Virus record (IMG/VR): IMGVR_UViG_2728369593_000014
Coordinates: 1-5,481 of that record
Length of the DNA: 5,481 bases
DNA from: a virus
Taxonomy: Duplodnaviria; Heunggongvirae; Uroviricota; Caudoviricetes
Strand: one strand, 5' to 3'
Shown: one piece after another, positions 1,459 through 5,044 of the stretch
How positions within the stretch are numbered: the stretch's first letter is position 1
How the letters are laid out: every line of letters begins with the position of its first letter
The notes under the pieces: generated by a model
Databases searched by the model: none
What the model was told of the DNA's origin: nothing
Seen by the model: only the letters and a program-made list of their open reading frames with translations
Position numbers and translations under genes: made by a program

Positions 1459-1994
1459 TTATCTGTCGATACCCCAGCACGCCAGCGCGCTCTCCTGGTC
1501 ACGACGGGATACCTGACCGTAACAGTTGTTTGAACGAATACGGCAGTCTCTGCCACCGTCCTTAATCCACCAGCGAATCGCCTCACAGGCACCTTTTCGA
1601 TCGCCTGCATTAATTCGTTTATAAAACGTCGACGGGAAGCACTTACCGGGGCCAATGTTGTACGGACAGAATGACGCGATCCCCGCTTTCTGGGGTTCGG
1701 TCAGCGGCACTTTGATGTTTTTCTCCACCCATGCCAGCGCCTTGTCACGTTCGATGGCATTAACCCGGTCGCATTTTTCCTTTGACAGCTTCATGCCAGG
1801 AATAACAGGCTTACCATCCACCAGAATGGCACCACGGCAGATGGTCCAGATCCCCGCACCATCACGGTATGCCATGGTGTGGTTACCTTCCTTTTCATCC
1901 AGAAACTGGTCGAGGATTTCAGGCGCAGAAGCACCTGCACCAATCAGCGCCAGAACGGCAGCCGACAGGTCCGTTATTTTATTTTTTCGTTCAT
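1459..1994 (-). CDS. R: Phage lysozyme-type SAR endolysin (R), 5' end disrupted: the only upstream ATG (1994) is in the +1 frame and hits a stop after 6 codons
   Basis: ATG-initiated ORF 1459..1875 (MAYRDGAGIWTICRGA…CEAIRWWIKDGG…QESALACWGIDR) shows the T4/P21-lysozyme family pattern (E…D…T catalytic spacing, GxWTxCxG). The same frame continues upstream without a start as …NKITDLSAAVLALIGAGASAPEILDQFLDEKEGNHT (SAR-like hydrophobic Gly/Ala segment) back to a stop at 2011-2013. One extra A in the A6 run (plus 1982-1987) would yield MNEKNKITDLSAAVLALIGAGAS… as a single ORF. Confidence 0.85.
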
Positions 1995-2111
1995 GGGGAT
2001 TTATCGATTTCTAATCCCTTGATATGTTAGGTATATAATCCAACACTCATGGTCGCTCTCATAAACATATCCCTTGAGACGCAGCAGATTACAACAAATG
2101 AAGCCATATAA

Positions 2112-2426
2112 ATGAACAGTAAAGAAAGTTTGCGCAGAAGATTTTTACAACTAATGACAGAAAACGTTAAATCAGAGTTACTTCTTCTGATGGCAGATAA
2201 TAACGAAGCAACAAGCAGCATTCTTGCAGACCCTTACGGTAAGATCTCACATAAAACGCTGGATATTATTACCACAACATTAACACCGCTGATGCTTCAA
2301 CGGCTGAAACATAATATCAACGCATGGGTTAATGAAGAATTAAGTCCTCCCTGCTTATGGGATTCTCGTTACGCATGTCAGCAAAAAATGCGAATTTTCA
2401 ACTTACTATCACCAAAGCTCAGGTAG
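2112..2426 (+). CDS. Hypothetical 104-aa protein encoded opposite to the lysis genes within an AT-rich segment between holin and endolysin
   Basis: Only long ORF in the 2011..2681 segment: MNSKESLRRRFLQLMTENVKSELLLLMADNNEATSSILADPYGKISHKTLDIITTTLTPLMLQRLKHNINAWVNEELSPPCLWDSRYACQQKMRIFNLLSPKLR. Local composition is visibly more AT-rich than the flanking lysis genes. No clear SD; promoter-like hexamers upstream are poorly spaced. Confidence 0.4.
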   Translation: MNSKESLRRRFLQLMTENVKSELLLLMADNNEATSSILADPYGKISHKTLDIITTTLTPLMLQRLKHNINAWVNEELSPPCLWDSRYACQQKMRIFNLLSPKLR

Positions 2427-2431
2427 CCATA

Positions 2432-2461
2432 AAATCCTGCCCTTCATGGCATACAGGATTT
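2432..2461 (+). other. Perfect 8-bp stem hairpin (AAATCCTG / CAGGATTT, 14-nt loop) immediately after the 104-aa ORF stop
   Basis: Seen directly in sequence; no strong U-run, so a weak terminator at best or an RNA structural element. Confidence 0.3.
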
Positions 2462-2681
2462 CAATGGAATCACAATGACCAACTCTTGCACAGCTGTATC
2501 CCTGACTCCCCGACAACTCAGATTTTCAGTATCTGCTGCTATCTAAAGAGAAAGCGCACAAATGCAAGGGTCTTTCATCACGTCCTGTTATTGATTGCCT
2601 GTGACCTTTTCTCACCTCATGGAACGTTTTTTCAGTTAGAAATATTCATTTTACAACCAGTTCGTATTGTTTATTCATCGA

Positions 2682-2888
2682 CTACTCTCCCCGCGCCACC
2701 TTACGACGGTCCTCTCTGATTTTGAAATACAGGTTAGTCAGATACGTCAGCAGGCCAAACAGCAGACTCCCCAGCACACCTATCGCCACCCACTGGGACG
2801 GAGAGACTTTGTCCAGCAGCTGCAGTAACCAGTATCCCGTCCCCACCGCTGACGTGGTGTATGACACACCCGTTGTGATTTTTTCCAT
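2682..2888 (-). CDS. S: Class II holin / pinholin of the phage 21 S21 type
   Basis: 68-aa product [68 protein letters not shown]: two TM segments and a charged C-terminal tail, closely resembling S21 (…[51 protein letters not shown], recalled from memory). ATG at 2888 with GGAG about 11 nt upstream; the 91-aa extension to 2957 has no such support. Confidence 0.9.
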
Positions 2889-3066
2889 CTGATGTATGTC
2901 TCCGTCACCGCCGACAGAAAATGAAAGTAAAGGAAAACAAAAAGCCGCCAGTGTCACCCACTGACGGCCAACTCCGGGAGCCGTGATTATGGCATTCAGG
3001 CTCTGCTAAAAATGCCAGATAACATTCCGGCTCCCCCCTGATTCAGGTTATAAATGACACAATATC

Positions 3067-3100
3067 TTGACAACATCCGTCACTGTCTGTCAGAAAATAT
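3067..3100 (+). promoter_or_regulatory. Promoter-like element, module 1: perfect -35 TTGACA then a CTGTCTGT…AAAATA block
   Basis: TTGACA at 3067-3072; the downstream -10 is imperfect (TCAGAA/AAAATA depending on spacer). Paralogous to the elements at 3235 and 4049. The reverse strand has an overlapping TTGTCA-N15-TATAAC pointing toward the holin. Confidence 0.3.
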
Positions 3101-3143
3101 ACCGCTAGGCATAAGTATCATCTTGTATACAACTATCCTTTTG

Positions 3144-3808: not shown

Positions 3809-3845
3809 GGGATTTTCTCGTTGAAAGGTGTTGTTAAGAAAGTTG

Positions 3846-4028
3846 CTACGAAATGAGAGGCTCTTCGGGTTTTGTTCCGGCTGACTGGCTGGCGCTGATT
3901 TTTTCCGCCGCCGCGGCATCAATCTTTTTGCGTATATAGTTCCGGATAACCTTATACCCGCCACTTACCAGATATAACGTGCACACCACCGTGCAGAAAT
4001 ACAATAAAATAAGCTGTACAAATCTCAT
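3846..4028 (-). CDS. Small membrane protein (60 aa): N-terminal TM helix and basic cytoplasmic tail
   Basis: ATG at 4028..4026 preceded by a very strong SD (GGGAGGG, 4-nt spacer); product MRFVQLILLYFCTVVCTLYLVSGGYKVIRNYIRKKIDAAAAEKISASQSAGTKPEEPLIS. Lies between gene A and gene B in the same orientation. Confidence 0.55.
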   Translation of the reverse strand: MRFVQLILLYFCTVVCTLYLVSGGYKVIRNYIRKKIDAAAAEKISASQSAGTKPEEPLIS

Positions 4029-4048
4029 TATCCCTCCCGGTTATTGAT

Positions 4049-4082
4049 ATGGTGTTGACATCGTTAATACCTGTTGGTTAAA
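4049..4082 (+). promoter_or_regulatory. Promoter-like element, module 3: perfect -35 TTGACA, 17-nt spacer, TTAAAAAA
   Basis: TTGACA at 4049-4054; same overall architecture as modules 1 and 2 and followed about 45 nt later by a plus-strand terminator. Confidence 0.25.
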
Positions 4083-4122
4083 AAAGTGTCCTGCATGTTT
4101 TGCTTTGGATATAACGACATTT

Positions 4123-4170
4123 GCCGCCGGTTCTGGCTCCTTGTTTTCCCTGCCCCGGCGGCCTTTTTTT
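4123..4170 (+). terminator. Intrinsic terminator, plus-strand orientation (module 3), abutting the 3' end of minus-strand gene A
   Basis: GCCGCCGG(4123-4130)…CCGGCGGC(4155-4162) with a long 24-nt loop, followed by C-TTTTTTT (4164-4170); the minus-strand side has no U-run. Confidence 0.5.
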
Positions 4171-4175
4171 CCTGC

Positions 4176-4829
4176 TTACGGGTTATTCACTTCCACTGTT
4201 ATACTTTCAATCAGCACCGGATATGTCGCACCGCTAGTGATATCGGTCACGCGCAATTTGTCTGCCGTAAACGTGCCGACCGGTGACTGTGACAGCATGA
4301 ACGGCGTCCCGTCCTTACCATCAATGACCGGCGTCACCTCAATACTGTTGTTACCGGCAAAACGGAAGCCCAGCGTATGCCATTCGTTATCAAATGCGCC
4401 GAATGACCCCAGCTTCGTGTTCTGACCAGCATTTCCCTTGTAGTACATCACATTAAGGTCTGTGGCATCGCTCTGTACGTAAAACGACGCCAGCAGGTTA
4501 TGACCGGCATTACCTTCCAGTGTGACGCCCTGAGGCAGTGAAGAAACCGGCCAGTACAGCGCCAGTGCGTACTGATTAGCTGTCAGTATGCCATCAACTT
4601 TAAAACGACAACTGATAAGCCCGCCCTTCTCCAGCAGGTCTGCGCCATTACCGGCATCATGCTGCATAAACCACGAGGAACTTCCTGTCTGTTTGGTCCA
4701 CCTCAGCGCCTTACCTCCTGCAGCACCTGCATCATCAACTACCAATGCACGCCCTCCTTCAGCTCCCCATCCCTGCGGATTCAGTAAACCACCTGACTCT
4801 GTTGCACGGTAATAAAGCAGCGTTGTCAC
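4176..4829 (-). CDS. 'Gene A': hypothetical 217-aa protein whose C-terminal domain is shared with gene B; possibly fused to the upstream DUF1737-like ORF
   Basis: ORF MTTLLYYRATESGGLLNPQGWGAEGG…YYKGNAGQNTKLGSFGAFDNEWHTLGFRFAGNNSIEVTPVIDGKDGTPFMLSQSPVGTFTADKLRVTDITSGATYPVLIESITVEVNNP; GTG start overlaps the stop of the upstream ORF (GTGA). Gly/Thr/Asn-rich composition with alternating hydrophobics suggests a beta-rich, possibly carbohydrate-binding fold (inference only). Confidence 0.65.
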   Translation of the reverse strand: MTTLLYYRATESGGLLNPQGWGAEGGRALVVDDAGAAGGKALRWTKQTGSSSWFMQHDAGNGADLLEKGGLISCRFKVDGILTANQYALALYWPVSSLPQGVTLEGNAGHNLLASFYVQSDATDLNVMYYKGNAGQNTKLGSFGAFDNEWHTLGFRFAGNNSIEVTPVIDGKDGTPFMLSQSPVGTFTADKLRVTDITSGATYPVLIESITVEVNNP

Positions 4830-5044
4830 TGATTTCCCGTCCGTTGGCCACCATCCCCCGTGCCGGGCACAACCACTGGCGTGGTCACATCCCCCTCCGC
4901 GGCAATCGCCTGCATCAGGGTATAAGGGGTTATGGCCACCGGACTACCAAACGGCTGCCAGCCCTCTTTCAGTTTGTGTGTCAGCTTTTCCGCAAGCTCT
5001 GACGGCGACGCCGCCTTGACAACATCATAGTGTTTAAATGCCAT
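4826..5044 (-). CDS. Small conserved prophage protein (72 aa), DUF1737-like by recollection
   Basis: ATG at 5044..5042 preceded by GGTGGAAAG; product MAFKHYDVVKAASPSELAEKLTHKLKEGWQPFGSPVAITPYTLMQAIAAEGDVTTPVVVPGTGDGGQRTGNQ. Domain assignment is from memory of small prophage proteins and NanS-p N-termini and needs an HMM search. Confidence 0.55.
   Translation of the reverse strand: MAFKHYDVVKAASPSELAEKLTHKLKEGWQPFGSPVAITPYTLMQAIAAEGDVTTPVVVPGTGDGGQRTGNQ

Follow-up and report, generated by a model that had tools for sequence, protein, structure and literature searches.

Three broken reading frames in the lysis region of a lambdoid prophage probably have three different causes, none of them a change in homopolymer length

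Introduction

In lambdoid phages, T4-type lysozymes are found with a class II holin (RrrQ / 933W R type), and in the prophages of Shiga toxin (Stx) and other lambdoid phages the interval running from Q/tRNA/iraM to holin-lysozyme is the place of nanS-p (yjhS-like) genes, which encode 9-O-acetyl-N-acetylneuraminic acid esterases annotated as 'SASA family carbohydrate esterase'. In T4 lysozyme, the catalytic triad is formed by Glu11, Asp20 and Thr26. These systems are compared here with a 5,481-bp stretch of viral DNA (IMG/VR record IMGVR_UViG_2728369593_000014; hereafter the window, meaning the whole stretch), which constitutes the entire draft contig AKYH01000132.1 (assembly GCA_001605745.1) and in which the lysozyme gene (the endolysin), a nanS-p gene of the same position and a composite of DUF826 and nanS-p parts, called gene B, have broken reading frames. 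On sequence grounds, the window is the late/lysis region, on the minus strand, of a degraded lambdoid (Stx-phage-like) prophage of Escherichia coli.

Gene identities were taken from the annotation of relatives and from precomputed Pfam matches, and the role of homopolymer runs as causes of the breaks was tested by setting run lengths against those of relatives and intact homologues. The closest relative is strain MFDS1001074 (L001; 99.4% over window positions 321-5481), followed by Z1323HEC0355 (L002; 99.3% over 1304-5481); the comparison also includes O55:H7 DEC5B (L004), strain 109 (L005), the dog strain D1 (L006), Z1323CEC0012 (L008; NZ_CP148435.1) and O2:H16 BA92 (L009; NZ_CP176406.1), as well as L007, the exact reverse complement of the window. 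Read from right to left on the minus strand, the window presents iraM, a DUF1737 stub, the remnant called gene A, DUF1378, then a DUF826 stub with a DUF6645 fragment (gene B), a class II holin, a plus-strand hypothetical gene, the lysozyme, two small open reading frames (ORFs), Rz/Rz1 and a small gene cut by an insertion sequence (IS). The intact layout, as seen in strain 109, is nanS-p (645 aa), DUF1378, DUF826 (89 aa), holin, YdfR and lysozyme.

With a probability of about 0.85, the three broken genes of the window have three different causes, none of which is a change in homopolymer length. In nanS-p, an esterase gene of DUF1737-SASA-DUF6645 organization, the loss of 1,069 internal bp would have taken out the esterase domain and put what follows into another frame, so that only a stub of DUF1737 and an out-of-frame tail of DUF6645 are left. 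Gene B would be the scar of an illegitimate recombination that brought codon 52 of DUF826 against the final 320 nt of a different nanS-p allele. Both scars would be inherited in a prophage lineage found in several finished genomes, and the G5 and G6 runs beside them would be normal coding sequence (Gly codons) of the parent genes. In the endolysin, two single-A insertions beyond an unchanged A6 run would create a stop at codon 7, so that the remainder of the enzyme would be cut off from its start codon, its hydrophobic N-terminal segment and its catalytic Glu35. Taken as a whole, this is ordinary prophage decay by rearrangement and IS insertion rather than slippage.

The nanS-p deletion

The remains of the first nanS-p gene are as follows.

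4847-5044, minus strand: N-terminal 66 codons of nanS-p (DUF1737 in Pfam), of which 4847-5037 are 97.9% identical to positions 4741-4931 of the strain 109 locus.
4176-4846, minus strand: C-terminal 223 codons of nanS-p ('gene A'), holding a complete DUF6645 (profile positions 1-119 of 119).
4846-4859, minus strand: deletion joint between 4846 and 4847, together with the G5 run (C5 on the plus strand, 4855-4859).

The DUF1737 and DUF6645 parts are 98-99.8% identical to the intact 645-aa nanS-p of strain 109, window positions 3653-4846 aligning at 99.8% and without gaps with positions 2478-3671 of that locus. In the intact protein, Pfam assigns DUF1737 to residues 4-50, SASA to 83-275 and DUF6645 to 494-611. 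Unlike this protein, the window has lost codons 67-422, that is 1,069 bp (positions 3672-4740 in strain 109), and therefore the entire esterase domain; SASA (PF03629) is not among the Pfam domains of the window's ORFs, the nanS-p ORFs giving only DUF1737 and DUF6645. Because the length of the deletion equals 1 modulo 3, these two domains are both kept but lie in different frames. On the coding strand, ...GGCACGGGGGATGGTGGC is followed at the joint by CAACGGACGGG... instead of the TATCCGGG... of the intact gene. Past this point, the stub reads QRTGNQ and meets a stop at 4826-4828, and gene callers place the start of gene A at the GTG of 4829. The G5 run (Thr-Gly-Asp) is located 8 nt upstream of the joint and is identical, with its flanks, in the intact strain 109 gene.

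The stop of the DUF1737 stub overlaps the GTG of the 217-aa DUF6645 ORF (GTGA, 4826-4829), an arrangement that could in principle allow translational coupling and thus yield a stand-alone complete DUF6645 domain. Besides, the protein cluster database holds two singleton proteins of about 200 aa in which DUF1737 and DUF6645 are in frame (P0004 and P0010), the only such cases.

The DUF826 joint

In addition to the deletion, and unlike the intact nanS-p arrangement, the window carries a 3' fragment of a second, unrelated nanS-p fused to DUF826.

3653-3808, minus strand: DUF826 codons 1-52, the upstream half of gene B, called 'DUF826 ... missing C-terminus' by the Prokaryotic Genome Annotation Pipeline (PGAP).
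3334-3653, minus strand: final 106 codons of a second nanS-p allele, a 3' fragment with a truncated DUF6645 that forms the downstream half of gene B.
3652-3659, minus strand: G6 run (C6 on the plus strand, 3654-3659) and recombination joint at 3652/3653, immediately 3' of the run.

The DUF826 stub is identical to the intact 89-aa gene of strain 109 through ...CTGGGGGGA, after which its own frame continues to a stop at 3617. Starting with the A at 3653, all 320 nt of 3334-3653 are identical to nt 1532-1851 of the gene for a 616-aa SASA esterase in another relative (L003), where this nanS-p gene sits directly upstream of the holin; the DUF6645 piece so acquired covers profile positions 44-115 of 119 only. 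Gene B thus reads as a probable recombination joint between codon 52 of DUF826 and codon 511 of the second nanS-p: the DUF826 sequence ...GGGGGGA gives way to the nanS-p sequence TCCGTTCC..., with 1 nt of microhomology (the A at 3653) and the two halves out of frame by one. Where intact DUF826 has GAG CTG CTG GGG GGA CCG GCT, the window has GAG CTG CTG GGG GGA TCC GTT CCT GAT. The G6 run is native to DUF826 (CTG GGG GGA, Leu-Gly-Gly) and is neither longer nor shorter in the intact gene of strain 109.

Both joints in finished genomes

The string across the nanS-p joint is identical in MFDS1001074, Z1323HEC0355, DEC5B, D1, Z1323CEC0012 and BA92, and that across the gene B joint in the same genomes except Z1323CEC0012, which has G5. 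Considering complete genomes only, seven cover at least 80% of positions 4176-5060, around the nanS-p joint, and eight cover 3500-3810, around the DUF826 joint, seven of these eight at 100% identity. As both joints are present in finished genomes, they are therefore not errors of this draft assembly. Both scars are called by PGAP as 'incomplete; partial in the middle of a contig' pseudogenes, and the partial pseudogenes of O55:H7 DEC5B, O157:H16 98-3133, D1 and MFDS1001074 (DUF1737 and DUF826 'missing C-terminus', DUF6645 'missing N-terminus') share the joints base for base, as well as the gene order, with the window. Unlike the window, the genomes with these pseudogenes have an intact 177-aa lysozyme where the region is present (MFDS1001074, Z1323HEC0355, DEC5B and D1) and lack the IS insertion found at the window's left end. 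DUF1737/gene A and gene B are accordingly of an already known kind, annotated as pseudogenes in finished genomes.

Further changes were seen in two genomes with the same two joints. In BA92 (L009, 3677-4081), the DUF6645 remnant has an extra internal deletion and the lysozyme is truncated, while in strain D1 (L006, 2731-4582) an inserted IS66-family element separates DUF1378 from the DUF826 stub.

The lysozyme frame

The third broken gene is the endolysin.

1459-1994, minus strand: endolysin (Phage_lysozyme), frame broken; ATG at 1994-1992, TAA at codon 7 (1976-1974).
1970-1975, minus strand: lesion made of two separate 1-nt insertions, an extra plus-strand T at 1970 and another at 1974/1975.
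1982-1987, minus strand: A6 run (T6 on the plus strand), encoding GAA AAA ATA, unchanged with respect to intact genes.

Save for two bases, the coding sequence is 100% identical to the intact 177-aa lysozyme gene of MFDS1001074, on which kind of homologue PF00959 was assigned. Intact relatives start with ATG AAC GAA AAA ATA AAA TAC GGC CTG TCG (MNEKIKYGLS..., 177 aa) and the window with ATG AAC GAA AAA ATA AAA TAA CGG ACC TGT; in other words, the coding strand has ...AAAATA[A]CGG[A]CCTG against ...AAAATACGGCCTG in intact genes, the extra bases (in brackets) falling 6 and 10 nt downstream of A6. The run itself is of equal length in the intact 177-aa lysozyme genes of MFDS1001074, Z1323HEC0355 and L003, and is present in about 596 of the 597 complete genomes that carry this lysozyme allele.

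The spacing read from the translation of the intact lysozyme, E35-X8-D44-X5-T50, fits the triad of T4 lysozyme. While intact relatives have a continuous ORF from the start codon through this E-X8-D-X5-T catalytic region, the window does not. Unlike T4-type lysozymes, its gene stops at codon 7; the other 170 codons stay open in another frame, where the first start is M40 (1875), giving a 138-aa ORF (1459-1875). Because this ORF lacks both the catalytic Glu35 and the hydrophobic N-terminal segment, its product would be inactive.

The lesion is private to this draft contig. When a 141-nt probe was searched in 5,426 complete E. coli genomes, none matched at 99% identity or more and every top match was 139 nt long; the exact variant string was not found in viral or metagenome contigs, and the 138-aa product is on record from AKYH01000132.1 alone. 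Two other origins for the extra bases were considered and rejected. Collapsed lysozyme paralogues are unsupported, as the five diverged alleles (82-98% identity) read ATACGGCCTG or ATACGCCCTG, without an A there. A hidden A7 allele, MNEKNKITDLSAAV..., from which the window would derive by an A7 to A6 slip, is at odds with all alleles reading ...ATACGGCCTG... and with the absence of the window string from viral and metagenome contigs.

As for the nature of the lesion, a carry-forward consensus error is judged somewhat likelier than a very recent inactivating mutation. Carry-forward errors, which arise in flow-based sequencing (454 / Ion Torrent), are single-base insertions that repeat the base of a homopolymer lying shortly before them, without touching it (PMC3764156). 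The endolysin insertions follow this pattern: in GAAAAAATAAAATA[A]CGG[A]CC, both are A and both lie just 3' of A6-T-A4-T-A. In addition, the A-rich 5' tract of the lysozyme gene has indels in 4 of 47 draft-derived IMG/VR contigs, whereas among about 633 complete genomes with the allele only one does (Fisher p ~1e-4). Three of the drafts have A6 shortened to A5 (L017, L018 and L035), the fourth (L028), of a different allele, has the first A insertion (TA to TAA), and the complete genome, with A5, is RM12275-C1 (NZ_CP031341.1). This enrichment points either to sequencing errors in the drafts or to a mutational hotspot, if a weak one.

Homopolymer runs across the window

The first-pass annotation of this stretch had reported three reading frames, that of DUF1737/gene A only tentatively, as broken exactly at homopolymer runs, and had put forward either systematic indel error or a prophage decaying or phase-varying at slippery runs. 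The three broken frames are confirmed, each with a run nearby (T6 at 1982-1987, C6 at 3654-3659 and C5 at 4855-4859), but the breaks do not coincide with the runs, the lesions being at 1970 and 1974/1975, at 3652/3653 and at 4846/4847, and the run lengths are those of intact homologues. The check that had been proposed, a comparison of run lengths with close relatives, was carried out and gave the answer, all three runs being unchanged.

The same holds for the window at large. It contains 35 runs of at least 5 nt, about one per 157 nt, so that some 15% of positions are within 9 nt of one. Besides the three runs of wild-type length, all 28 other runs of this size in 1304-5481 are identical to those of the finished genome of Z1323HEC0355, which refutes a systematic homopolymer indel error. 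In the comparison with MFDS1001074, 31 of 33 runs agree, the other two falling in a substituted allelic patch.

Several observations weigh against the explanation preferred here. All three lesions are within 1-12 nt of a run of at least 5 nt, for which a naive calculation with three random sites gives p ~0.003; this proximity carries little weight, because the nearest run was chosen post hoc within frame-overlap zones that are tens of nt wide. The G5 of Z1323CEC0012 in place of G6 at the DUF826 joint, together with the single complete genome having A5 in the lysozyme, indicates that these runs do slip occasionally, rarely however, such isolated cases falling short of phase variation. The 1,069-bp length was measured on one intact allele, that of strain 109, which is 97.9% identical in the N-terminal part. 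Regarding the artefact proposed for the endolysin, the window differs from Z1323HEC0355 over 1538-5481 (3.9 kb) by only two single-nucleotide polymorphisms and the two endolysin insertions; carry-forward errors are usually cleared in the consensus unless coverage is low, and the contig shows no further instance of one. For the consensus to be wrong, coverage would have to be low or the reads biased by direction. Besides, a real knock-out of the endolysin could plausibly occur in a defective prophage already short of other functions.

Alternative explanations

Among the alternatives, the one that survives best concerns the endolysin alone, namely that the double insertion is a real and recent inactivating mutation, e.g. 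one complex insertion, fixed since the loss of lysis would be neutral or advantageous. This remains a serious competitor, if somewhat the less probable account of the lesion. The IS insertion, the nanS-p deletion and the chimeric joint show a prophage that was defective already, the lack of any further indel relative to Z1323HEC0355 across 3.9 kb speaks against a generally error-prone consensus, no known paralogous allele accounts for the insertions, and the occurrence of the first of them in L028, on a different allele, could point to a mutational hotspot. Set against this, two independent same-base insertions 3 nt apart are improbable as separate mutations, the variant is in no other assembly, the insertions fit the published carry-forward signature (PMC3764156), and indels of the lysozyme tract are commoner in drafts than in finished genomes. 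Of the artefact that had been envisaged earlier, what stands is therefore a plausible error in the endolysin only, in the form of two insertions by an A-rich tract and not of a change in A6; for gene A and gene B, the identical joints of 7-8 independently finished genomes rule it out.

Far less probable is a low-frequency slip switch at the G-run of 3654-3659, whereby G6 would give two fragments and G5 a 157-aa chimera, and, separately from it, the expression of the complete DUF6645 of gene A as a stand-alone 217-aa protein through termination-reinitiation at GTGA. The chimera is the open, in-frame DUF826::DUF6645 ORF of Z1323CEC0012 (L008, 2835-3308, equivalent to window 3334-3808), where G5 replaces G6. 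That this relative might be generally indel-prone was considered and rejected, as G5 is its only difference from the window over 3319-5481 outside a variable intergenic patch; its G5 may be a genuine slip or an isolated error. If this reading were true, the conserved 'scar' module, present in diverse serotypes, would encode new small proteins and not dead remnants.

Slightly less credible still are slipped-strand contingency loci, in which G6/G5 and A6/A5 would switch the DUF826::DUF6645 fusion and the endolysin on and off. Beyond the fusion ORF of Z1323CEC0012, this can call upon the A5 lysozymes of one complete genome and three draft contigs. Yet run length is close to invariant, with G6 in 7/8 genomes, G5 in 8/8 and A6 in about 596/597, the exceptions being single (Z1323CEC0012 and RM12275-C1). 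A search of 5.8 billion protein clusters yielded none in which DUF826 and DUF6645 are combined, and what the 'on' state would produce is a chimera whose DUF6645 is truncated (profile 44-115 of 119). Runs of 5-6 nt are short for efficient slippage; the endolysin break of the window is outside A6, and no run length restores a full gene, a change of G5 leaving nanS-p without its 1,069 bp. Phase variation, as formerly proposed, thus gives way to a deletion and a recombination joint as the source of the G5 and G6 breaks, and of prophage decay at slippery runs it is the decay (deletion, recombination and IS insertion) that holds, not the slippage.

It is very improbable that the sequencing platform (454, Ion Torrent or nanopore) misread homopolymer lengths at all three breaks, in a genome whose three genes are intact. 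The window is indeed a short draft contig bounded by repeats, and other draft-derived contigs have A6 shortened to A5 in the lysozyme tract. On the other side, besides the agreement of run lengths with intact homologues and with Z1323HEC0355 reported above, the gene A and gene B joints recur exactly in 7-8 genomes that were finished by different laboratories in different countries, and a correction of the runs would rebuild neither parent gene, 1,069 bp and the 3' end of DUF826 being physically missing. No intact full-length relative differing from the window's nanS-p or DUF826 by run length alone was found.

Finally, programmed ribosomal frameshifting, by which overlapping frames would yield proteins with two domains, is excluded by the arithmetic of the frames. 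In the DUF826 frame, G GGG GGA has the formal shape of an X XXY YYZ slippery heptamer, but ribosomes shifted by -1 at this point would translate three codons (ATC CGT TCC) and then meet TGA, and only a shift of +1 leads into the DUF6645 frame. The intact, unshifted DUF826 gene contains the same heptamer, and the overlap arises from rearrangement joints rather than from a conserved overlapping-gene design.

Other features of the window

The remainder of the window comprises the following features.

1-327, plus strand: 3' end of an IS3-family element with the C-terminus of its transposase; ORF 79-285 runs off the contig start (rve_2/rve_3 in Pfam).
325-480, minus strand: small hypothetical gene truncated by the IS, 51 aa against 74 aa in MFDS1001074 (WP_000736097.1).
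504-962, minus strand: Rz-type lysis protein (spanin), intact (WP_001346902.1, 'lysis protein'; PF03245).
566-751: Rz1 lipoprotein ORF embedded in Rz.
2154-2426, plus strand: hypothetical 90-aa gene between lysozyme and holin (WP_122995794.1 / WP_000138558.1).
2682-2888, minus strand: class II holin (Phage_holin_2_1), intact, from annotation and PF04971.
3846-4028, minus strand: DUF1378 gene, intact, from annotation and PF07125.
5296-5481, plus strand: iraM (anti-adapter protein), running off the contig end, from annotation and PF11183.

At the left end, matches beginning at window position 1 are annotated as 'IS3 family transposase', and the terminal inverted repeat of the element, presumably like that of IS629/IS1203, finishes with ...GGGGCGGTTCA at 327. 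Homology to MFDS1001074, which is free of this IS, begins at 328, and window positions 328-1969 show no differences from it. The target of the insertion is the 74-aa hypothetical gene downstream of Rz, whose translations agree through ...NATNEE, after which the IS end supplies the stop. The contig terminates within the IS, as is typical for a repeat-broken draft assembly. Pfam gave no family for the 90-aa gene at 2154-2426.

Positions 2706-3141 differ from MFDS1001074 by about 20 substitutions and 2 indels amid an otherwise near-identical alignment, and the same stretch is identical to Z1323HEC0355, which indicates a probable mosaic recombination tract that takes in the intergenic region and the holin gene's 3' end. 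Further along, between the nanS-p 3' fragment and the holin, the plus strand of 3060-3334 has two tandem units about 149 nt apart and antisense to the late genes, each consisting of a TTGACA hexamer (3068; 3235) followed some 75-100 nt on by a GC-rich hairpin with a U-run (3144-3186; 3294-3332), with folding z-scores of -1.8 and -2.8, respectively. An Rfam scan of the whole window gave no matches at E up to 0.1. The synteny 'sialic acid esterase-PasA/PasC-holin-lysozyme' was described for the prophage Pas small RNAs in a 2026 preprint (10.64898/2026.05.13.724894), with which the tandem units agree in position, the likeness being one of position alone.

Concluding remarks

The value of these observations is mainly for annotation, without bearing on an open biological question. 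In general terms, a homopolymer beside a frame break is weak evidence. DUF1737/gene A and gene B should be called as partial pseudogenes, i.e. remnants of nanS-p and DUF826 rearrangements, and not be 'repaired' by run-length editing. The endolysin is the sole call of the three that hinges on sequence quality, and its entry should carry a warning that the consensus may be wrong by two bases; if its lesion is real, the prophage has lost its lysozyme.

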